Shown: positions 1 to 9,241 of the stretch, piece after piece
Layout of the letters: the number at the start of each line of letters is the position of its first letter
Numbering within the stretch: position 1 is the stretch's first letter
Source: Synechococcus sp.
Lineage (GTDB): Bacteria > Cyanobacteriota > Cyanobacteriia > PCC-6307 > Cyanobiaceae
DNA length: 64,000 nt
Direction of reading: 5' to 3'
Assembly (NCBI GenBank): GCA_047284725.1
Contig: JBJBEO010000001.1
Location: forward strand, 544,001-608,000
Notes under the pieces: generated by a model
Seen by the model: only the letters and a program-made list of their open reading frames with translations
The model's database searches: none
Told to the model about the DNA's origin: nothing
Made by a program: the position numbers and the translations under genes

Positions 1-1
1 C

Positions 2-427
2 GACAGCTACGGCCACGACGCCGGTGATCATGTGATCCGTCAGGTGTCCGACTTGCTCTCTCGCTTGGTACGCAGTGACGATCTGGTGGGACGCTTGGGC
101 GGTGATGAGTTCGTTCTGCTGTTACAGATGCCGAACAAGACGGCAACCCAAAAGCTGGAGTGCATCCTTGAGCAGTTAGGGAGTACTGACGCAGAAGTGT
201 GCGAAAGCAAGTCGGTCACCATCAGCATTTCTGTGGGAATGGCCAGCAGCAGCGGCCATGCCGCTTACGAGCTCAGCGCGCTCTTGAAAGCTGCCGACGC
301 GGCTCTCTATGTGGCCAAGGACCGTGGCCGCTCCCAGGTGGTGAACCTAGAGATAGAACAGGAGCATTCCAAGGGGGGGCGTCGCAGACCCTTGCGTCAG
401 AGCGATTGGGAAATCCGTGGAGCCTGA
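2..427 (+). CDS. Diguanylate cyclase (GGDEF domain), 5'-partial
   Basis: Frame is open from position 2: DSYGHDAGDHVI...RSDDLVGRLGGDEF...AADAALYVAKDRGR. GGDEF and the RxxD I-site are intact. Confidence 0.92.
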   Translation, partial: DSYGHDAGDHVIRQVSDLLSRLVRSDDLVGRLGGDEFVLLLQMPNKTATQKLECILEQLGSTDAEVCESKSVTISISVGMASSSGHAAYELSALLKAADAALYVAKDRGRSQVVNLEIEQEHSKGGRRRPLRQSDWEIRGA

Positions 428-848
428 GGAGACTCCCTTCCTTTAGTCGGCTACACAATCTCCCTGGCATTGCTGCCCTTAGTAGACCTCTTAGTGAGAC
501 ACCTTTGTGAAGTCACTTGCTGCGATAGCTCAAGATGTGTTGCTTCTGAGCCGTCAAAAATTGATGCAACTGCCGTGAGGCTTATGCAATCACTTTCGAA
601 GGCGGTGAAAGCAAAGCAGGTGGCATGCGACATAGCGTGTGCCCATCATCGAGTCTGCGCACATGGCAAAGACGCTCTTTTGTGAAGGCCCGTCGTCGAT
701 GACGTGGCGGCATCGAATTTTGAAAACCCATGGCAGTACAGGCTGACCAGATTGTGAGAAGAACAAGGCGGGTCATCAATAGCCATCGTCCTCGCTGAAT
801 TGACTATCGAATTGATTGCGCTGGATCCGCTACCCCTGCATGGGGACA

Positions 849-1204
849 TCATGTGATCTCAAAGTGCCTCTTGATGCAGGCACGTTTCGGTTTGAAAGGG
901 GTGCATTGCTCTCTTTCGTTTCGAGCCAAGCACAGCTGCTGGCTACTGAGATACCTCGGTGAACATCGGACCCACCCGGTCTTGAGCATCGCCTGCCACG
1001 CCTCAATGGCGTTGTGCCTGAGCATCCGCCTCACGACAGGTTGCCCACCACCACGTAGCGGCCTGGTCTCCACCTCAACCCACTTGGCATGGGCTGAGGC
1101 CAACGCATTCCGGAAGCAGACCACCTTCTGCTCCTGTTCATTCAGCAGCCAACCTTCCCCATTTATCTGAGGGTGTGGTTCAGGGTGCTGGCTCTTGCGT
1201 TCGC
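849..1204 (-). pseudogene. DUF1651-like gene, copy 1 (start altered, 3' frameshift read-through)
   Basis: GWLLN..QKVVCF...RRMLRHNAIEAWQAMLKTGWVRCSPR is nearly identical to 8170-8433. A 1-nt deletion (tctcagtag vs tctcaagtag) shifts the stop out of frame. Confidence 0.7.
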
Positions 1205-1209
1205 ACCGA

Positions 1210-1266
1210 TCAGAACCCGCCAGGCTCGTTCGGCTTCTCACCTGACTCGAACGTGGTGCGGAGCAT
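1210..1266 (-). pseudogene. Internally deleted copy of the 6437-6787 secreted-protein gene
   Basis: MLRTT fused in frame to FESGEKPNEPGGF; both ends match 6437-6787. Confidence 0.8.
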
Positions 1267-1271
1267 GGGTT

Positions 1272-1427
1272 TCAGTCTTGGTTGACGGTGAGGCCAATCG
1301 CCTAGAAATGATCGAGCACGGTGCTCACAGCTGCAAGCACCTGCTTGGCGCGTGCCAGCGTCTCGGCAGGGCCTTGGCCCCGGCTGATGCACCGGTTGAG
1401 ATTGCTGCGGGTGACCTGTTGCTGCTG
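1272..1427 (-). pseudogene. Decayed small ORF (QQQQVTRSNLNRCISRGQGPAETLARAKQVLAAVSTVLDHF*AIGLTVNQD)
   Basis: Homologous to 6273-6431, with an internal TAG at 1302-1304 and no start codon. Confidence 0.55.
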
Positions 1428-1454
1428 CGATCAGCGTTGAAGGGGATTGGTTGA

Positions 1455-1589
1455 TTTCTGCGCAGGAGAGCACCAGCCCCCTTAGGCGAAGAGGCCGGTG
1501 CTCTGTGGGACCCCTCTATGCCCTCAAGGCCCCACAGGTGAATCAACTCCCGACTCATGAGGGATCGATACCCCTAAGTGGGGACATTG
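1455..1589 (-). repeat. ~135-bp repeated element, copy 1 (candidate structured RNA 1463-1552 plus conserved upstream block)
   Basis: Aligns with 1883-2014 and 6114-6245; stems are conserved. Confidence 0.85.
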
Positions 1590-1804
1590 ATCTGTATTGA
1601 GGGAGCCGTGTTGAGAGCCTGAGAAAGATCATCAAATTGATGGATTCGGCATGCATCTGATTTAGAAAACTCTGAATCAGATGCGCAAAGTCGCCTCACT
1701 AGTAAGTCCTTGTCGACATCTGAAAGAGAACCATCTGGAGACCATTTCAGGCAGGTCCTGCCGATGCAAGTGTCGTCTGTTGTTCCTTTAGAGATCAGGG
1801 TCAT
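1574..1804 (-). CDS. Small hypothetical protein
   Basis: 76-aa ATG ORF (CIGRTCLKWSPDGSLS..DLLVRRL) resembling small picocyanobacterial hypotheticals. Confidence 0.55.
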   Translation of the reverse strand: MTLISKGTTDDTCIGRTCLKWSPDGSLSDVDKDLLVRRLCASDSEFSKSDACRIHQFDDLSQALNTAPSIQINVPT

Positions 1805-1882
1805 TTACACCTCCCTTGCCTTGTGTCCAACTTGGGACAGCGATCTCCATTGCAGATACCCCCTAACGAGGACGTTTGCTCC

Positions 1883-2014
1883 TGCATGAGAGCACCAGCC
1901 CCCGGAAGGGAGAGGGCAAGTGCTCCATGGGGCTCTCGTTCTCTCACCAAGAACCCAACAAAAGGACTCAACTCCTGATCCATGAGGGATCGATACCCCT
2001 TGGTGGGGACAATG
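1883..2014 (-). repeat. ~135-bp repeated element, copy 2 (candidate structured RNA 1885-1977)
   Basis: Shares gagagcaccagccccc, tcaactcc and catgagggatcgatacccct..gtggggaca with copy 1. Confidence 0.85.
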
Positions 2015-2062
2015 AGAGGGCTGAGGGTCAGGTCCTGGTTGACCGAGATTCTCCAGAGGCGC

Positions 2063-2093
2063 AAAAAAAAAACGCCCCTGGCTCACAGGGGCG
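2063..2093 (-). terminator. Rho-independent terminator
   Basis: Minus strand cgcccctg-tgagc-caggggcg followed by a long T run. Confidence 0.8.
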
Positions 2094-2300
2094 CTTCAAT
2101 CGCTATTTGTCTGACGTGTTCAGTAGCCAAGACCGTCCAGGCTGTCGGTTCCGAACATGGTGACTTCACGTTCATCGTTGAAGGGGATTGGTTGAGGTCA
2201 GGGCATGGCCGTGATTTTTGATCTTTTGTGGTTGTCGGTCATGATCAGATCCTGCAGTGCTGGGCGGCCATGGCCTTAGTTCACAGGTGACAGACCTCGA

Positions 2301-3389
2301 TCAAGACATAGAGAAAGCAGAAGGGTCCGGAAGGACACGCCAAGCCTCTAACTCCATGGCAAATGCCGCATGGCGCTGAATCGCATCATCCATGAACAAA
2401 GCGACACGGATCGATGCAGCATCGCTTGAGGCAAAACCATGCATGGCGTCACCAGCCGTCATACACCGAAGAGCCGCCAACCTCCAGTCGCGCCAAGCAT
2501 CGTCAAGTCTGTAATGACAGATGCCGCGTTCAATCAGAACAGCATGCCAAGCCTGAACAAGATCCTCGTAACGCCCCTGCCTTTGCGCAACAGGCGTACT
2601 TCCTCCCACTAAAAAGGCCACATCAAGGGCGGCGAGTCCACGGGCAGCCCACGACCAGTCAAGGATGACCGACTTAGGCGCAGCAGCATCAGTATCGAAC
2701 AACAGATTATCCGCCCTGAGATCACCGTGAATCAGAGTCCATTGAGATTCAGATAGAGCTTTATTAATCGCATCACTTTGCTCAAGCACACAAGAATAGA
2801 GCTTGCAGACTTCCGAACCAAATCTCACCCCATACGTCGCGAAAAAATCCTCAACAATCTCTTGCTTGGGCGCCCCAAACCACAGACCGTGGTGGGGCAA
2901 CCAATCGTGGTCTACCAAAGCATCATCCATCCAAAATTCTGCATGAATTGCCGCCATATTCTTTACAGCAGACAGCGTTTGTTCGTAGGTCAGACCCACC
3001 ACTTGATCGCCAGCCTTCAGATCCGAAAGATCCTCCATCAACAACCAAGCGGGGGCCTCTCCACTGCTGGCGTACACGACAGGCTGGTAGCCCTTCAGCC
3101 GCGGCGTGCAATGTTGATAAACACCAACCTCACGCTGAAAAGCATTGTTCAAACGACTGAGTTCGTTGAACATTGGATCAGCTGTTTCACTCTTTAGGAT
3201 GAGTGTTGATGGGCACTCATTCGCAGACTCCGCTTCAAGACTGAGACGCCAAGCTGTTGACTGAAGACCGCGTCCATCGCCAAGACGATCGGCCTGCAAA
3301 GCCTTGACCCTGCAGCCAAGCGCATCACCAATCCATTCGGGCTCTGGCGCCCTCACAATCGAAGGATCGAAGATGCTGCCATCAACCAT
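2301..3389 (-). CDS. APH/choline-kinase-like phosphotransferase
   Basis: LILK, LLMEDL, LIHGDLRADNLLF and ILDW motifs. Confidence 0.85.
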   Translation of the reverse strand: MVDGSIFDPSIVRAPEPEWIGDALGCRVKALQADRLGDGRGLQSTAWRLSLEAESANECPSTLILKSETADPMFNELSRLNNAFQREVGVYQHCTPRLKGYQPVVYASSGEAPAWLLMEDLSDLKAGDQVVGLTYEQTLSAVKNMAAIHAEFWMDDALVDHDWLPHHGLWFGAPKQEIVEDFFATYGVRFGSEVCKLYSCVLEQSDAINKALSESQWTLIHGDLRADNLLFDTDAAAPKSVILDWSWAARGLAALDVAFLVGGSTPVAQRQGRYEDLVQAWHAVLIERGICHYRLDDAWRDWRLAALRCMTAGDAMHGFASSDAASIRVALFMDDAIQRHAAFAMELEAWRVLPDPSAFSMS

Positions 3390-3827
3390 TCACGGGCTCG
3401 TCAACTGGGATCAAGTTAGCCTCACCATCCAAGAGAAGCCGCCCGTCAGAACAGGGGTGATACAAGCACAACCAATCAACACAATTCACAGAGGTCCACA
3501 GAAGGTAGGCAGCTCAACTTGCGGGCCACTATGGTTCTGAACAGACTACGCATAACTTTCCAACGCCATGAATCCGTGAAAGCAACACGAAACTGCTAGG
3601 GATTGTCCGCAAACAATTGGCTGTCATTGCTGATTACAGGACAGGCAGAAGCTGGCATTAGTTACCAGCTTCTATCTGCAGTCGCTGCCAGTAACCGTCT
3701 GAACTAGGGCGGCATTCTTGCGCCTGGGTTGGGCGCCCGATGGCATCAAAGTAGTTGGCGCGGACTAACTCCCAGCGAGAAGCCATGTGGAGCTGGTCAG
3801 CGGTGCAGATGTATTAACGTCTTGCTA

Positions 3828-4055
3828 TCAGTCAACCTCCAGCCGACAGGCGGCAATGGCAATGGCAATGTTGATTAACTTGCACGCCTTGGACAGCTCA
3901 CGTTGAGCGGCAATCAGATTGCGTGCATTGGCTGCATTTAGCTCAGTGTTCTGCAAGATGTCTTCCAGGTCTGACAGTGCAGCTTCTGCCGTGGGGAGGA
4001 TTTTCTGAGAGAGCTGAATCGATAGCTCTCGGTAGTTAGCTGGGTGTCGTTTCAT
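3828..4055 (-). CDS. Hypothetical helical protein
   Basis: ORF from MKRHPANYRE; start chosen at the ATG. Confidence 0.45.
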   Translation of the reverse strand: MKRHPANYRELSIQLSQKILPTAEAALSDLEDILQNTELNAANARNLIAAQRELSKACKLINIAIAIAACRLEVD

Positions 4056-4306
4056 TGTTGGAACCCCGCCGAAGCGGGGCGTGATGGTGTTCAGGCGAGG
4101 CAATAACGGCGTGCAGTGGTCTGAGAGATGTGCAGGCGTTCAGCGATGACGCGATAGGTGTGGCCGCGTTTGCGCCAGCGGCGGGCTTTCAGCTGTGGGC
4201 TCTCTGTGAGCCAGAGCAGGAAGACGATCGGCAGCAACAGTGCAACTGGCAAGCAGCATCACCAGCCGTCTTTTCAGTATCTGAATCGACAAGCGAACAA
4301 GACCTA

Positions 4307-4699
4307 GTGATCAAACGGCTGCTCTCCCTAATGGCAGTGCTGCTCGCCAGTTGCACTGCTGCTGCTGGACCGTACCCCGAGGTGCAGATCGCTCGTTGCT
4401 ACGACGGCGATACCTGCACCAGCACCACCGGAGAGAAGATCCGACTGGCCTGCATCGATACGCCAGAGCTCCAGGGGCGCAATGCTGATCCGATTCCAGC
4501 GAAAGCTGCACGGGACTATCTGCGTGGCTACCTGAAAGGGAAGACCATCACCATCCGCCGGATCGATACCGATCGCTATGGCCGCACCGTGGCGGAGCTG
4601 TTTGCTGATGGCGTGAACGTCCAGCAACAGTTGGTTGCGAGCGGACATGCAGAGATCTACCGCCGTTACGCAAAACCGTGCGAATGGGTCAATCACTGA
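4307..4699 (+). CDS. Thermonuclease (SNase-like), probable exported protein or lipoprotein
   Basis: DGDT, IRLACIDTPE and DRYGRTVA motifs; N-terminal signal LLASC; GTG start chosen. Confidence 0.9.
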   Translation: MIKRLLSLMAVLLASCTAAAGPYPEVQIARCYDGDTCTSTTGEKIRLACIDTPELQGRNADPIPAKAARDYLRGYLKGKTITIRRIDTDRYGRTVAELFADGVNVQQQLVASGHAEIYRRYAKPCEWVNH

Positions 4700-4838
4700 G
4701 TCGCAACAACATCACTGCTGTAGACCCCACCCGCGACTCCACTGCCCCCTCCAGTTGATCCAGCTCTGACACGACCCGCAAGCACAACTGTTCAACGCAG
4801 AGCATCAGAAGCGATGGCAGACCATCAACCAGGTTCGG

Positions 4839-5051
4839 CTACTTGCGCCCAGCAATTGCGTCGGTTATGTCATCGATAATTTGACAAAAATTTGTGGAAG
4901 CAAAGGGGGGGAATTCGCAATTCCATGCCGATAAAGCAAAATAAGCCTCAGCCTTCTGTCGCTTATCAAGGTTTGCAGATGCTGGCGATGCCAAGCTGAT
5001 TGCCAACAAAGCAGCAGCTCCAACGCTAGTGAGCGCTTTAGAACGACGCAT
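4839..5051 (-). CDS. Small secreted hypothetical protein
   Basis: 70 aa with a classic signal peptide ending ASA. Confidence 0.55.
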   Translation of the reverse strand: MRRSKALTSVGAAALLAISLASPASANLDKRQKAEAYFALSAWNCEFPPFASTNFCQIIDDITDAIAGRK

Positions 5052-5270
5052 GATGTGGCCCTTTAATACCTAGCCTTGTTTAGCTGAGTGTGCTCTTTCT
5101 CGGCAACGAGGTGTGTTTGGCTGTAGAAGACCTTCCCCCCTCTGGTTGCCTTTCTCAGTCGTATGCCATCGACTCTGGTGAGTGTGGCCACGCAGGGTTC
5201 ACCCGTGAGATAATGAGGTCATCGACAGGGCAGCCACAGGCGCCGGTCGATCACCACAGCATTCAATCCA

Positions 5271-5426
5271 ATGACCAACGCCGAACGCGCGGTGGTCCTC
5301 TACGAGCTCTACACGAAGCTCGATGAGTTGATCACCGCTGAGGAGATGGAAACCTTCCCATTCCTCGAACATCTTGCCGACCTCATTGAAGATCTGGAGG
5401 GGGAACCCCCGCCTTCGTCGTCTTAA
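5271..5426 (+). CDS. Small acidic hypothetical protein (51 aa, not in ORF track)
   Basis: MTNAERAVVLYELYTKLDELITAEEMETFPFLEHLADLIEDLEGEPPPSSS, with host-like codon usage. Confidence 0.55.
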   Translation: MTNAERAVVLYELYTKLDELITAEEMETFPFLEHLADLIEDLEGEPPPSSS

Positions 5427-5702
5427 TCAGCTTGTTGGGAACTCAACCTGATCAACAGGAAAGGTTGAATTTTGGCATTTTTCGACCCATTTAACCTTTC
5501 GAATAATATCGTCAGTGCCTCTAATAGGGAGAGGCCAGTCGGCTTTCGCTCTAGCCCAACAAGGTCTTTGACGATCAAATCTCCTCATATTGAGCTGCTC
5601 TTGCTGAATGACTGTCCAGCCCAGCCATACGGAAGGGGGGGCGATGACAATGGTCCAGGCAAAAATGACGAAATTCTTGGTGGTCTTATCCATGTAGCCC
5701 AC
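5427..5702 (-). CDS. Hypothetical membrane-anchored protein
   Basis: 91-aa ORF with an N-terminal hydrophobic segment. Confidence 0.5.
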   Translation of the reverse strand: MGYMDKTTKNFVIFAWTIVIAPPSVWLGWTVIQQEQLNMRRFDRQRPCWARAKADWPLPIRGTDDIIRKVKWVEKCQNSTFPVDQVEFPTS

Positions 5703-5740
5703 TCTGCACCGGTCCTGATGCGAGTGACACCCTCGCCTTC

Positions 5741-5769
5741 AGCTCGTCGGGCTCATAACCCGAAGGTCG
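5741..5769 (+). other. tRNA-Met(CAT, initiator-type) fragment, probable att-site scar
   Basis: agctcgtcgggctcataacccgaaggtcg matches the 3' D-stem, the anticodon arm (GGG/CCC stem, CAT) and the variable loop of bacterial tRNA-fMet. Confidence 0.8.
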
Positions 5770-5770
5770 A

Positions 5771-6085
5771 TCAGGCGGCTTTGACAGCAATGGATCGCTC
5801 AACGGTCCACAGGGTGCGATTGCGCTGGCGGTGCTTGCCGAAGCGATACCCGAACGCCTCATCACCATCAGCGAAGCCATCGATGCCTTTGACCCCCAAG
5901 GCAGTCAGCTCATCAGTGGTGAGCACCAGGGCGTGATCAGCAGCGTCGGCAAGACCCTTCGCTCGCTTCAAGGGATCAGACGATGCGGCCTGCTGTTGCC
6001 CCATCACTGACGCCATCACAGACATCAGTGCAGCGGTGTCTGGCGGGACAATCCCGGACTGTTCAGGACCGTTTAAAAGCGTCAT
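5771..6085 (-). CDS. Hypothetical protein, possibly 5'-truncated
   Basis: 104-aa ORF with strong coding codon usage, beginning right at the 6087 repeat. Confidence 0.55.
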   Translation of the reverse strand: MTLLNGPEQSGIVPPDTAALMSVMASVMGQQQAASSDPLKRAKGLADAADHALVLTTDELTALGVKGIDGFADGDEAFGYRFGKHRQRNRTLWTVERSIAVKAA

Positions 6086-6113
6086 CTCAGCCGATCCCCT
6101 TCAGCGCTGATCG

Positions 6114-6245
6114 CAATGTCCCCACCTAGGGGTATCGATTCCTCATTGGTCGGGAGTTGAGTCCTTTTGTGGGGCTTTGACAGACGGAGCCCCATAGAGC
6201 ACTTGCCCTCATGAGCCCGGGGGCTGGTGCTCTCCTGCGCAGAAA
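6114..6245 (+). repeat. ~135-bp repeated element, copy 3 (candidate structured RNA 6151-6237)
   Basis: Reverse-complement homolog of 1455-1589 and 1883-2014. Confidence 0.85.
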
Positions 6246-6272
6246 TCAGCCGATCCCCTTCAACGCTGATCG

Positions 6273-6431
6273 CAGAAGCAACAGCAGATCACCCGCAGCA
6301 ATCTCTACCGGTGCATCCGCCGGGGCTAAGGCCCTGCCGAGACGCTGGCACGCGCCAAACAGGTGCTTGCATCCGTGAGCACTGTGCTCGATCATTCCGA
6401 GGCGATTGGCCTCATCAACAACCAAGACTGA
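6273..6431 (+). pseudogene. Decayed small ORF, twin of 1272-1427
   Basis: QKQQQITRSNLYRCIRRG*GPAETLARAKQVLASVSTVLDHSEAIGLINNQD, with an internal TAA at 6327-6329. Confidence 0.55.
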
Positions 6432-6436
6432 AACCC

Positions 6437-6787
6437 ATGCTCCGCACCACACTCACCGCCATCGCATCCACGGCTGCGCTGATCGCTGTCAGCGAACCGA
6501 TGGATCCACCAGTGGCCCAGGCCGACACCGTGAAGGATGCGCTCTGCGTCCTTTCCCGCCACGACGACTCCATCCCCAGGGAGGAGTTCCGCTGCGACTT
6601 CACCCAGACCATGGGCGGCGCTTATGTCGACAGCACGCGCTGGGCATTCATCTTTCCCCACTCCGAGCAGGACAAAACCTTCAGTCGGCAGAACACCGAA
6701 GATTTCATTCGCTGGACCCGTGAAGGTCAATACACACTGACCCTGTTCCAAAGCGGAGAGAAGCCAAACGAGCCCGGCGGGTTCTGA
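6437..6787 (+). CDS. Secreted hypothetical protein (116 aa)
   Basis: MLRTTLTAIASTAALIAV..AQA signal peptide, two Cys, strong codon bias. Confidence 0.75.
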   Translation: MLRTTLTAIASTAALIAVSEPMDPPVAQADTVKDALCVLSRHDDSIPREEFRCDFTQTMGGAYVDSTRWAFIFPHSEQDKTFSRQNTEDFIRWTREGQYTLTLFQSGEKPNEPGGF

Positions 6788-6852
6788 TCGGTTGGAACGT
6801 AAGAGCCAGCTCAGGTTCTGCAAATCACTGATCAAGGCTTCAATCAGACACT

Positions 6853-6881
6853 AAAAAAGCCCCGCCGAAGGGCAGGGCTTT
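6853..6881. terminator. Rho-independent terminator (mainly for the minus strand)
   Basis: aaaaaagccccgcc-gaag-ggcagggcttt between convergent genes. Confidence 0.75.
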
Positions 6882-6904
6882 GCGGGTCTTGATAAGGCAG
6901 CGCC

Positions 6905-8017
6905 TTACACAATTAGGAAGCCATTGACAACATCGTAGGTGTTGCCGAATTCGAGAGCAACTGCGCCCATTTCATTCACATCGTCATTTTGATCAATGGT
7001 GCCGCTAATGCCGCTAATCAGTTCAAAGTTACGGATAATCATACGGCCCCCCGAACCGTCGACGAGGTAGGGAGACCCTCCGTTTTGGCCATCGACATAG
7101 CTATAAGTACCATTACCGAGCACAATTTTGTCTTTAGTGCCTGCAACTTCTCCGTCTCTTACAAACCCGTCACCGTCGAATCTAATCCCGGAGCTAAAAC
7201 CATCTCCAATCAAGGTGTCGTTGTCTGCGCCAAGATAAATACGCCCGAACCCTTCGAAACCGCCAGTAAGTGCATCGACCGTATCATTGCCTGCGCCCGT
7301 AATAATAGTATTTCTAGAAAAAGTGAAGGAAATCCCGGCGTCGTCACTGGTGCTAACACCAGTAATTGAATCGTCGCCGCTACCGGTTCTGATAAATCCT
7401 CGGGTAAGGCTGATCCCAGTCGCCCCCTCTCCGTAAATTGAATTATTTCCGTCGCCCAATTGTATGTTTGAACGATCTAAATATACCCCGACAGCTCCAC
7501 CCGTTCCGTTAACCGAATCATTGCCATCTTCGGCTAGAAGGAGAAGGCCCGAACTTTCCAGATTAATTCCATGACTTCCACCTGTTCCATTGATTGAGTT
7601 ATTTCCATTGCCCATGTCTATTAGTGATAATTTTGCTGATACCCCATAGACTCCCCCTTCTCCATTAATCGTATCGTTGCCATTGCCAGTAGTAAGCGCG
7701 GACTCAATTAGGTATACACCATTGAGTTCACCAACACCAACAAATGTATCGCTTCTGTCGCCTGTAATCAGTCTAGATCTAACTAATAGGATGCCATCAT
7801 CTTCAAGCAGAACGTTTCCTTCGGAATCTTCTTCGCCATTGCCGACAATGGTTACTTTTTTGTTTAGCGACCCAGCCTGCCCTCCCCCAGTGACTGGATC
7901 AGTACTAGTTGTGTCCAATACTTGACCATCCAGCACCCAAGAGCTTGCTTTCAATGATGCACGGCTTTGAGGGGAAAGCTCTTGGAATGCTTTCAGAAGA
8001 TCAAAATGATCGGACAT
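6905..8017 (-). CDS. Gly/Asn/Asp-rich repeat protein, RTX/hemolysin-type Ca-binding-like
   Basis: Repeats TGNGNDTING, MGNGNNSING, LGDGNNSIYG, TGSGDDSITG, TGAGNDTVD and LGADNDTLIG; lower GC than the host; start uncertain. Confidence 0.75.
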   Translation of the reverse strand: MSDHFDLLKAFQELSPQSRASLKASSWVLDGQVLDTTSTDPVTGGGQAGSLNKKVTIVGNGEEDSEGNVLLEDDGILLVRSRLITGDRSDTFVGVGELNGVYLIESALTTGNGNDTINGEGGVYGVSAKLSLIDMGNGNNSINGTGGSHGINLESSGLLLLAEDGNDSVNGTGGAVGVYLDRSNIQLGDGNNSIYGEGATGISLTRGFIRTGSGDDSITGVSTSDDAGISFTFSRNTIITGAGNDTVDALTGGFEGFGRIYLGADNDTLIGDGFSSGIRFDGDGFVRDGEVAGTKDKIVLGNGTYSYVDGQNGGSPYLVDGSGGRMIIRNFELISGISGTIDQNDDVNEMGAVALEFGNTYDVVNGFLIV

Positions 8018-8169
8018 TAAAAAACAGTAACTAGCTTCAAACTTCGTCGGCAGGCGCTTGGTTTGTCTTAAGTCCTCATGAGAATCGGGTGAGCGTATTT
8101 CTTGCGTTTCTATCTGACTCATTTCCAGATCGGTTACAAGACATGCGAGAGAGAGCAGTGTTCTGATCG

Positions 8170-8433
8170 ATGGAACGCAAAAGCCAGCACCCTGAGCCGC
8201 ACCCTCAGAAAAACGGGGAAGGCTGGCTGCTGAACGCACAGGAGCAGAAGGTGGTCTGCTTCCGGAATGCGTTGGCCTCAGCTCATGCCAAGTGGGTTGA
8301 GGTCGAAACCAGGCCGCTGCATGGTGGTGGGCGGCCCGTCGTGAGGCGGATGCTCAGGCATAACGCCATCGAGACATGGCAGACGATGCTCAAGACCGGG
8401 TGGGTCCGGTGTTCACCGAGGCATCTCAAGTAG
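8170..8433 (+). CDS. DUF1651-like protein, copy 2
   Basis: GEGWLLN...RRMLRHNAIETWQTMLKTGWVRCSPR signature. Confidence 0.75.
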   Translation: MERKSQHPEPHPQKNGEGWLLNAQEQKVVCFRNALASAHAKWVEVETRPLHGGGRPVVRRMLRHNAIETWQTMLKTGWVRCSPRHLK

Positions 8434-8446
8434 CCAGCAGCTACTT

Positions 8447-8854
8447 CTAAAAGCCGGACATGATCCTCAGCCTTGTGGCGATGAATTTCTTGGTCTGTTC
8501 CCTGGTGTCTTCGCTGCACCTGGCGGCTCGCATTGTGATTCCGTAGCCGAGCTTCGTAGGGACATTCAGCTCGATTCCGTTGCGGCCAAGGAATAAGCGA
8601 GTGGCGATAAAAGACATCCGCTTGTTGCCTTCTGCGAAGCCGTGGTTTTTGTTCATCGCCAGCATTAGATGGGCGGCCAAGACGAAGCGATCGTCTTCCT
8701 CGGCGTAAAACCAAAGCTGCTGCGGTGCGGCCAAAGCCTGCTCCAGCTTGTGGGTGTCGATACCGGGAATCCCTCCGTAAAGCTTCAACATCCGGGCGTG
8801 AGCCGGTTCAAGCCACTCCCGCTTCAACCAACTCGGCTCAACCGGCCGAGGCAT
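8447..8854 (-). CDS. doc: Death-on-curing (Doc/Fic family) toxin
   Basis: H..MLKLYGGIPGI and HGFAEGNKR, matching the Doc-type motif HxFx[DE][AG]NKR. Confidence 0.9.
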   Translation of the reverse strand: MPRPVEPSWLKREWLEPAHARMLKLYGGIPGIDTHKLEQALAAPQQLWFYAEEDDRFVLAAHLMLAMNKNHGFAEGNKRMSFIATRLFLGRNGIELNVPTKLGYGITMRAARCSEDTREQTKKFIATRLRIMSGF

Positions 8855-9063
8855 CAGCTATCGGAAAGGAGCCGCATCAGCTCGTCGTTTTCCTCGAAAG
8901 TCCTCTCCAAGGCCCTGAGCATTCCGGCGTCACCGCAGACGTCAGAGTTGGCCTGGGGCAGATCAACGACAGAGCGTCGCTTCACATCAACGCGCCGGAC
9001 GAACTGCATCGACCGACCTTCAGGGCCGGGGTTGATACGGATTTTCCGCTTCTCCTTCTCCAT
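8854..9063 (-). CDS. Probable antitoxin of the Doc toxin
   Basis: 69-aa ORF directly upstream of doc with a TGATG stop/start overlap; acidic amphipathic C-terminal helix FEENDELMRLLS. Confidence 0.65.
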   Translation of the reverse strand: MEKEKRKIRINPGPEGRSMQFVRRVDVKRRSVVDLPQANSDVCGDAGMLRALERTFEENDELMRLLSDS

Positions 9064-9088
9064 GCCGTCGATTCTGGACTTGCCGGCT

Positions 9089-9241
9089 TCAGACCGCAAG
9101 CAGTTGGGCCAAGGCCAGGGCGTCGGCCACATCGAGGCAGACCTGGCCGTCCATCGGGTGGGCCTGGCTGAGGGCAGTGTGGAGGCGGCCGATCAGGGCC
9201 AGCCTGGGGTTGTCCTCCACAGCACTGGTGGCCTGATTCAC
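9089..9241 (-). CDS. Small hypothetical protein (50 aa)
   Basis: GTG ORF NQATSAVEDNPRLALIGRLHTALSQAHPMDGQVCLDVADALALAQLLAV with high GC3. Confidence 0.4.
   Translation of the reverse strand: MNQATSAVEDNPRLALIGRLHTALSQAHPMDGQVCLDVADALALAQLLAV

Follow-up and report, generated by a model that had tools for sequence, protein, structure and literature searches.

The first kilobases of the Synechococcus sp. stretch analysed here (64,000 nucleotides of contig JBJBEO010000001.1, positions 544,001 to 608,000; hereafter the window) carry an element of roughly 130 bases that occurs in three copies and forms two strong hairpins on one strand. The question it raises is whether such an element acts as an RNA, as a DNA site or as a gene, or whether it has any present function at all. 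An earlier note, made from the sequence alone, had proposed a structured RNA in three diverged copies. The analysis below finds that the element is real and reproducible. The reading of it that we favour, with about as much doubt as confidence, is that of a modular intergenic repeat, restricted to one lineage, in a genome of the marine Synechococcus type; for such a repeat a role at the RNA level is the most likely one.

Three copies of a two-hairpin element

The three copies, with the 31-nt box and the two stems (P2 and P3) that compose them, lie at the following positions.

1455..1589, minus strand: element copy 1, with the box at 1587-1557, P2 at about 1535-1505 and P3 at about 1504-1467; 150.3 bits.
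1877..2014, minus strand: element copy 2, with the box at 2012-1982, P2 at about 1959-1927 and P3 at 1926-1889; 131.8 bits.
6114..6245, plus strand: element copy 3, with the box at 6116-6146, P2 at about 6169-6195 and P3 at 6196-6233; 149.7 bits.

Alignment of the copies gives a conserved CAWTGTCCCCAC-YW-AGGGGTATCGAT-Y-CCTCAT, followed by a GAGTTGA linker and then by P2 and P3, with a closing stem of 4-5 bp that has one G·A mismatch in copy 2. Both stems, the linker and the closing stem with its mismatch emerge from alignment and folding just as the earlier note gave them. The box of copy 2 starts with TTG, not ATG. A 27-nt pattern taken from the box, CCCCAC-NN-AGGGGTATCGAT-N-CCTCAT, has three matches in the window without a single mismatch (1557-1583 and 1982-2008 on the minus strand, 6120-6146 on the plus strand) and none in 100 shuffled sequences, and the 3' arm of P3, GGGGGCTGGTGCTCT, is matched exactly three times against a shuffle mean of 0.45. 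The covariance model that the earlier note had recommended was built from the three copies, and it recovers just these three in 64 kb. Its next-best matches are P3 hairpins on the opposite strand, at no more than 18.7 bits; the 21 remaining matches at E <= 10 are either such other-strand P3 hairpins or have E >= 0.17, and everything outside the three loci has E >= 0.17. The model also moves the end of copy 2 from 1883 to 1877, while the limits previously given for copies 1 and 3 stand. Pattern match, shuffles and covariance model together bear out the claim of three diverged copies.

One unit is about 160-190 nt long and comprises a 5' flank related to a 29-nt repeat (DR29, located below), the 31-nt imperfectly palindromic box, P2 (8-12 bp) and P3 (14 bp). 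The box is nearly invariant across the three window copies and eight translated relatives, in different contexts, and it can form an imperfect hairpin of 11-12 bp (GATC-ATG-CCCC / GGGG-TAT-GATC).

Folded as RNA on the strand given above, copies 1, 2 and 3 reach minimum free energies of -63.6, -57.9 and -59.2 kcal/mol (z -3.16, -2.96 and -2.92), whereas their reverse complements reach -45.2, -48.2 and -44.9 kcal/mol (z -0.24, -1.48 and -0.74). The RNAalifold consensus contains 40 pairs, and 116 of its 120 cells are paired; pairing survives a change on one side in twelve pairs and on both sides in two, and three of the four broken cells lie in P1. Sliding the partners out of register, as a control on a fold that was derived from the same three sequences, lowers the paired fraction from 96.7% to 57% or less. 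The hairpins are therefore kept though the sequences of their arms and loops differ, as had been proposed. The proposal that pairing works on one strand by way of G·U pairs is upheld too: G·U outnumbers A·C by 19 cells to 2 (12 against 2 pair columns, one-sided P = 0.0065) and, in P2 and P3 alone, by 15 to 0, alongside z values of about -3 on the one strand and -0.2 to -1.5 on the other. We regard this evidence for a strand-specific structure as suggestive.

An open frame on the opposite strand, and relatives of the element

The copies had been said to share no reading frame. This is wrong for the opposite strand, where one frame is open through all three, and gene callers have called ORFs (open reading frames) of 65-93 aa in it, which fall into five protein clusters. 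An open frame of this kind could belong to a small protein gene (MGLSFS...HEGSIPLGGD...). The window copies, however, have no consistent start codon, and the called ORFs match no Pfam family and have unrelated C-termini that run into upstream sequence. Six differences separate the box and linker of copies 2 and 3: read in the reverse frame they are five non-synonymous changes and one synonymous, and read in a forward ORF of 10-14 codons (MSPPRGIDSS...) they are four non-synonymous, one synonymous and one start-codon change. Indels shift the reverse frame between P3 and P2 in one of the clusters, P0001. The 37-aa ATG ORF of copy 3 is absent from the protein collection, and a forward-frame ORF of 93 aa over copy 2 has no relatives there. 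From the substitution counts, the unrelated C-termini and the want of a Pfam match we conclude that neither strand appears to be coding, and a small protein gene seems to us highly improbable. The hypothetical proteins at 1876-2163 (plus strand) and 6082-6195 (minus strand), and P0001-P0003, P0007 and P0008 with them, are most likely spurious.

A profile of the same reverse-frame translations, run against 1.84 billion representative proteins, gave nine matches. Five of them (P0001, P0002, P0003, P0007 and P0008) are translations of the element itself: each begins with the ATG that CCCCAU in the 3' arm of P2 gives when reverse-complemented, and reads on through the linker and the box (HEGSIPLGGD) into DR29 (IAISAEGDRL) or a degenerate form of it. 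A search of 5.8 billion proteins returned the same five clusters and none further; the cluster of P0003 has four members. P0004, P0005 and P0009 proved to be unrelated repeat proteins and were set aside. P0006 is a 275-aa predicted protein with five 53-aa repeats, whose 159-nt period equals DR29 plus element unit, and all that it has in common with the P3 3' arm, translated in the reverse frame, is LSxQESTSP; the likeness is probably due to chance, though a distant relative arrayed in tandem could also give rise to P0006.

The relatives show the element in several arrangements. P0001 reads element-DR29-element, so that units also occur in tandem with no gene between them, and metagenome contigs carry such arrays. 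Synteny links P0008 to the terminator region ahead of copy 2 (71 residues align), and its DR29 is intact; in P0002 a DR29 stands next to a non-element segment of roughly 135 nt. P0007 probably represents one more copy, the fourth of this genome and a more diverged one, outside the window. To judge by their reverse-frame residues, P0003 and P0007 may also contain a terminator-like stretch.

Back-translation of the relatives fixes codon positions 1 and 2 only, and so speaks to compatibility with the fold and is not a statistical test of it. At the positions so fixed, all pairs of the P0007 P2 remain pairable, with one U-A changed to U-G, and the single P2 mismatch of copy 2 is a G-C pair in the relatives that cover it (P0001-P0003, P0007 and P0010-P0012). 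An outer P1 helix drawn by RNAalifold (columns 11-13 with 35-37) was rejected, as it is broken in copy 2 and P0001, P0002 and P0008 imply a U-to-C change in column 37.

At the nucleotide level, the exact box 19-mer AGGGGTATCGATNCCTCAT occurs at one locus among species-representative genomes (185,579 species), in a coding region of a Peptostreptococcaceae metagenome-assembled genome. We take this match to be chance, the gene being unrelated and the remainder of the element absent. An exact scan of this kind misses diverged homologues, and the fourth copy differs by one base inside the 19-mer. Going by title and abstract, none of the papers found on marine Synechococcus islands, repeats and non-coding RNAs (ncRNAs) describes such an element.

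Modules, duplication and the low-GC island

Parts of the unit recur around the copies and apart from them.

6087..6115, plus strand: DR29 (TCAGCCGATCCCCTTCAGCGCTGATCGCA), directly 5' of copy 3.
6246..6274, plus strand: DR29, directly 3' of copy 3 and 159 nt from the first.
1426..1454, minus strand: DR29, directly 3' of copy 1, with 2 mismatches.
2167..2195, minus strand: solo diverged DR29 (6/29 mismatches), about 150 nt 5' of copy 2 and upstream of the terminator.
2015..2068, minus strand: degenerate DR29-like 5' flank of copy 2, of the type also present in P0003 and P0007 ('DRAEGQVLVDRDSPEAQK' in the reverse frame).
823..849, minus strand: solo partial 5' box (ATGTCCCCATGCAGGGGTAGCGGATCC), abutting the stop codon that ends the left DUF1651 gene; a 78% repeat match.
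6275..6436, plus strand: 160-nt stretch from DR29 to a gene for a 116-aa protein, 91% identical to 1263-1425 on the minus strand.

The 5' flank of copy 1 is likewise a degenerate DR29. DR29 is found next to other, non-element segments as well: those in P0002, at 2068-2166 and in the leader of the 116-aa gene. The 160-nt stretch has no significant fold (z -1.3 on both strands). Between copy 2 and a 76-aa ORF that follows it lies a scrambled stretch (1831-1875, minus strand) with a box-like TTAGGGGGTATC and with GATCGCTGTCCC, which is like the junction of DR29 and box; the stretch is possibly what is left of another unit. Unlike the left DUF1651 copy, the right one lacks the box, and it stops sooner, at 87 aa. 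Ten nucleotides past the solo DR29, a putative 26-codon ORF for a hydrophobic peptide (MAVIFDLLWLSVMIRS..., plus strand, 2167-2286) overlaps the 3' region behind a kinase-like gene.

A large inverted duplication (947-1589 against 6114-8428) has copies 1 and 3 at its inner ends. Its arms are 82-95% identical, the duplicated length is 640 nt or more, and it encloses a 4.5-kb segment. The order common to both arms is element, DR29, 160-nt stretch, 116-aa gene and DUF1651 gene, and from the box to the gene start 323 nt are conserved between copies 1 and 3. The left arm has suffered an internal deletion in the 116-aa gene (6451-6739 lost), and the right arm has gained an inserted 444-aa repeat-rich gene on the opposite strand (6905-8239) that has no Pfam or PHROG match. 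The flanks of copies 1 and 3 are 91-95% identical, whereas P2 and the 5' arm of P3 are only about half identical and both still fold. Copy 3 is a mosaic, copy-2-like in its interior and copy-1-like outside.

Copies 1 and 3 are part of this duplication, and the repeats could be neutral leftovers of segmental duplications in a hypervariable island, with hairpins that are inherited palindromes of no present function. That the family is rare in public data and that its covariation is not significant are both in keeping with such an origin. It does not explain why the interior should be far more diverged than the flanks while both hairpins persist in three copies, and in the fourth as far as it is readable, nor does it fit the 15-to-0 excess of G·U over A·C in P2 and P3 or the near-invariance of the box. 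We consider neutral leftovers distinctly unlikely.

The window is cyanobacterial chromosome, with kaiA, kaiC, rplU, truB, purD, purC, lpxC and lpxB to the right of 9.8 kb (Pfam). It also contains the two copies of DUF1651 (Pfam), which we take to be a family of marine picocyanobacteria. GC content is 52-56% at positions 1-8000 against about 60-63% over most of the remainder, and this low-GC island of small and orphan genes, bordered by a GGDEF gene (ending at 427) and a phd/doc pair (8447-9132), contains every part of the element finding. Domain scans covered 18 island ORFs and 17 further ORFs, a subset of those in the window, and found no integrase, transposase, recombinase or phage structural domain in either set; matches to PHROGs in the island are limited to a helix-turn-helix (HTH) protein, a nuclease and Doc. 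A 28-nt inverted repeat (4231-4258 / 4338-4365; 93%, with a 79-nt spacer) lies in the 5' part of a staphylococcal-nuclease-like gene (4130-4699), where Rfam gives isrG alone, at 11.5 bits. The genes and signals that adjoin the element or mark the border of the island are as follows.

6437..6787, plus strand: gene for the 116-aa protein, downstream of copy 3 and starting 190 nt past it.
1210..1266, minus strand: internally deleted remnant of the 116-aa gene (MLRTTFESGEKPNEPGGF*), downstream of copy 1.
5774..6046, minus strand: 5'-truncated gene, corresponding to residues 94-184 of 184-aa homologues, with its break about 40 nt from the DR29 of copy 3.
2069..2097, minus strand: intrinsic terminator (stem of 12 bp, then 10 T in a row) that belongs to the kinase-like gene upstream and lies on the 5' side of copy 2, at a distance of 55 nt.
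8447-9132, minus strand: Doc-family toxin gene (Fic/DOC, 1.1e-12) and the 92-aa ORF preceding it, at the right border of the island.

The 92-aa ORF ahead of the Doc gene has the position of a Phd-type antitoxin and matches no family.

All three copies are co-oriented with the genes downstream of them (3/3). Each copy had been described as standing 5' of small genes. This is so for copy 3, which is followed by the 116-aa gene; copy 1 precedes only the remnant of that gene, and the 76-aa ORF after copy 2 is unsupported, with no Pfam or PHROG match and no occurrence of its exact sequence in the protein collection. The 116-aa protein, the N-terminus of which reads as hydrophobic and signal-peptide-like, belongs to 55 clusters at 56-96% identity, mostly metagenomic, and these mark it as a real family. 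None of the 17 homologues examined from those 55 clusters, extended ones included, has residues of the element or of DR29 in an N-terminal extension. Since these homologues lack the element upstream, it is not a leader specific to the 116-aa gene, and the tandem units together with the want of a tie to any one gene speak more for a small RNA or a generic structure than for a dedicated sensor. Because the left neighbour of copy 3 is a gene that lacks its 5' part, the element-bearing segment abuts a rearrangement break. In the metagenomic homologues of the truncated gene the N-terminal part resembles a DNA-binding domain, and the first 14 codons of the 104-aa ORF called at this position are unrelated sequence.

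The earlier note had also suggested that the box acts as a promoter. A consensus scan does not identify it as one, and the A of its putative TATCGA -10 would be G in P0007, judging from an I-to-T change in the reverse frame. In each copy an A/T-rich hexamer lies 33-38 nt upstream of CAWTG (GATGAT at 1633-1628, GAGAAT at 2053-2048 and TTAAAA at 6073-6078), and AGAAAT stands ahead of the downstream DR29s (6241-6246 and 1459-1454). These are candidate -10 boxes, which the consensus scan leaves unflagged.

Modules, breaks and inverted arms of this kind lead to the main rival of a role in RNA, which is a repeat that works at the DNA level. The element would be either a non-autonomous mobile element (a miniature inverted-repeat transposable element, MITE; a REP/BIME; or a palindrome-associated transposable element, PATE, of the IS200 type) or a cassette junction with DR29 as the recombination core; a transposase or recombinase would make use of its hairpins, possibly in single-stranded DNA, and RNA would be incidental. 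DR29 flanks copy 3 on both sides in a manner that resembles a duplicated core and borders non-element segments too, the modules occur solo, as mosaics and in tandem arrays, and copy 3 adjoins a truncated gene. Copies 1 and 3 also enclose their 4.5-kb segment as inverted repeats, and elements that are recognised as single-stranded DNA tolerate G·T pairs as well. Several results speak against a MITE, an IS200-IS605 PATE or a REP-RAYT system: terminal inverted repeats are not seen in the element, the sequences of P2 and P3 show no relation, in contrast to the two ends of IS200/IS605 derivatives, and the ORFs scanned contain no transposase, integrase or recombinase domain. The same DR29 at different sites is not an ordinary target-site duplication. 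The co-orientation of all three copies with neighbouring genes also speaks against a DNA element, as does a strand asymmetry that is large in RNA energies and small in DNA energies. A DNA-level role is compatible with a role in RNA; as the explanation of the element, with the RNA incidental, we think it unlikely.

Known families and the possible role of the element

At the gathering score, Rfam 15, which presumably holds the Yfr-type families, finds only three tRNAs in the 64 kb, in line with the earlier statement that no known family was recognised. Over 700-7000 at E <= 10 there are eight sub-threshold matches, none of which overlaps the stems; the only one to touch a flank of the element is the archaeal sR55 (6068-6131; 16.8 bits against a gathering score of 35), and the others lie on terminators. 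A tRNA-derived site was rejected, as ARAGORN and Rfam place no tRNA at the copies and the best alignments to the three tRNAs of the window are weak (21-24) and on the opposite strand. A CRISPR array, with its unique spacers of 26-72 nt, was rejected as well, DR29 having a period of 159 nt with 130-nt intervals that are mutually homologous, and the scanned ORFs having no cas domain. The same applies to an array of the ToxI-like type III antitoxin kind (tandem 34-45-nt repeats ahead of a terminator and an endoribonuclease toxin gene), given the 159-nt unit and the small protein encoded downstream, with its 55 homologue clusters and an N-terminus that reads as signal-peptide-like.

The BOX elements of pneumococci, the REP/BIME and ERIC repeats of enterobacteria and the Correia elements of Neisseria are modular intergenic repeats that fold in RNA, and BOX, REP, ERIC and Correia repeats are co-transcribed with their neighbours and affect mRNA stability or termination. 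Like these repeats, the element is multicopy and intergenic, has strong hairpins and modules that occur solo or in tandem, and lies at sites of rearrangement. It differs from them in having no sequence relation to any, a low copy number (three in 64 kb, probably at least four in the genome), no transposase known for it, and one module that is a nearly invariant 31-nt box. Integron attC sites and Vibrio cholerae repeats are comparable in length (about 120-130 nt), in their strand-specific structure and in their place in a variable region, between small genes that share an orientation and have no known function. An attC site, however, forms a single long imperfect palindrome by pairing of the R''/R' core sites at its ends (RYYYAAC / GTTRRRY), whereas the element has two independent hairpins and unpaired ends; no integron integrase or other recombinase domain was found in the 18 island and 17 further ORFs.

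The element might also be a diverged member of a multicopy picocyanobacterial ncRNA that has been described and is absent from Rfam, such as Yfr103. Yfr103 is reported to be a structured ncRNA of 290-328 nt with seven paralogues in Synechococcus CC9605, a conserved imperfect palindrome upstream of its transcription start site (TSS), and occurrences in WH8102, WH7803, CC9311, CC9605 and other strains (PMC5069720). The element shares with Yfr103 and with Yfr2-5 the organism group, the paralogues and the predicted structure, and with Yfr103 a palindrome, in that its box is also an imperfect one; copies 1 and 3 are moreover conserved over the 323 nt from box to gene start. Beside the reported length of Yfr103, the unit common to all three copies is 130-190 nt, and copy 2 has only a 130-nt part of the stretch that copies 1 and 3 share. 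A TSS placed 29 nt past the palindrome would land inside P2. Yfr103 is reported from many strains and is widespread, whereas the box 19-mer, searched as an exact match, was found in no representative genome beyond the one unrelated locus. We consider membership of such a described ncRNA very improbable; the element is probably a new family, and the length of Yfr103, its spread across strains and the outcome of the exact-match scan argue against identity with it.

The earlier note had proposed a cis-regulatory or antisense RNA of a mobile element and had loosely likened its layout to the C4 RNA of phage P1 and the CI RNA of P4; by this analogy the element would be a phage- or plasmid-type immunity or antisense RNA. 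The likeness is one of layout alone, in that small genes of a variable region follow a short candidate for a structured RNA, and it does not carry further. There is no Rfam match over the stems, no target repeats were identified, and the phage-type genes of the island are limited to the nuclease, the HTH protein and Doc, with no match to phage structural proteins, integrases or transposases among the ORFs scanned. A distant-mode blastn search with 6080-6460 returned nothing from 50,697 phage and 72,556 plasmid records. We regard a phage-type immunity RNA as extremely improbable and close to refuted.

A number of observations weigh against the lineage-restricted repeat with a role in RNA that we favour. 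Covariation among the three sequences is not significant, with 61 of 500 shuffles reaching the observed score, and only two pairs are compensatory, in a fold that was derived from the sequences tested. When DNA parameters are used, the strands differ by about 3 kcal/mol (-25 vs -23), and because this difference is small a role as single-stranded DNA keeps its standing. The excess of G·U pairs may stem from a transcription-linked C-to-T bias, or partly from a slight G+T excess of the strand. The box with its 5' flank has no significant fold (z about 0), none of the copies has a U-tract after P3, and the consensus scan finds no promoter near any copy. Back-translation indicates that P2 no longer has its loop-closing pair in P0002 and in the upstream, second unit of P0001. 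Finally, with the 19-mer scan and five protein clusters as the evidence, the distribution looks very narrow.

In the reading that we favour nonetheless, the strand that carries the hairpins would be transcribed, with a weak promoter in the 5' flank or read-through as the source. It is in this RNA that the hairpins would have their effect, either as a small RNA of its own or as a structure, upstream of whichever cassette comes next, that serves stabilisation or processing; the element would not be a sensor dedicated to one gene. The copies would spread and be reshuffled by recombination between the repeated modules. A bolder version is a long shot, in our estimation: DR29 and the element may together be a portable transcription or RNA module that is shuffled among the island cassettes of marine Synechococcus by site-specific recombination at DR29. 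This would be an integron-like system with a new structured junction and a recombinase encoded elsewhere, in which the junction gives a promoter, a structured leader or a small RNA to the cassette behind it.

Should the element be only a rare local repeat, its value would be modest, that of one more unannotated intergenic repeat and of a warning about spurious proteins of 65-93 aa. Hypervariable islands hold much of the strain-to-strain variation of marine picocyanobacteria, and little is understood of how their small cassettes come to be expressed and reshuffled. Both questions might be approached through a structured, strand-specific junction module, as a possible marker of recombination junctions and a possible source of an RNA leader or a small RNA.

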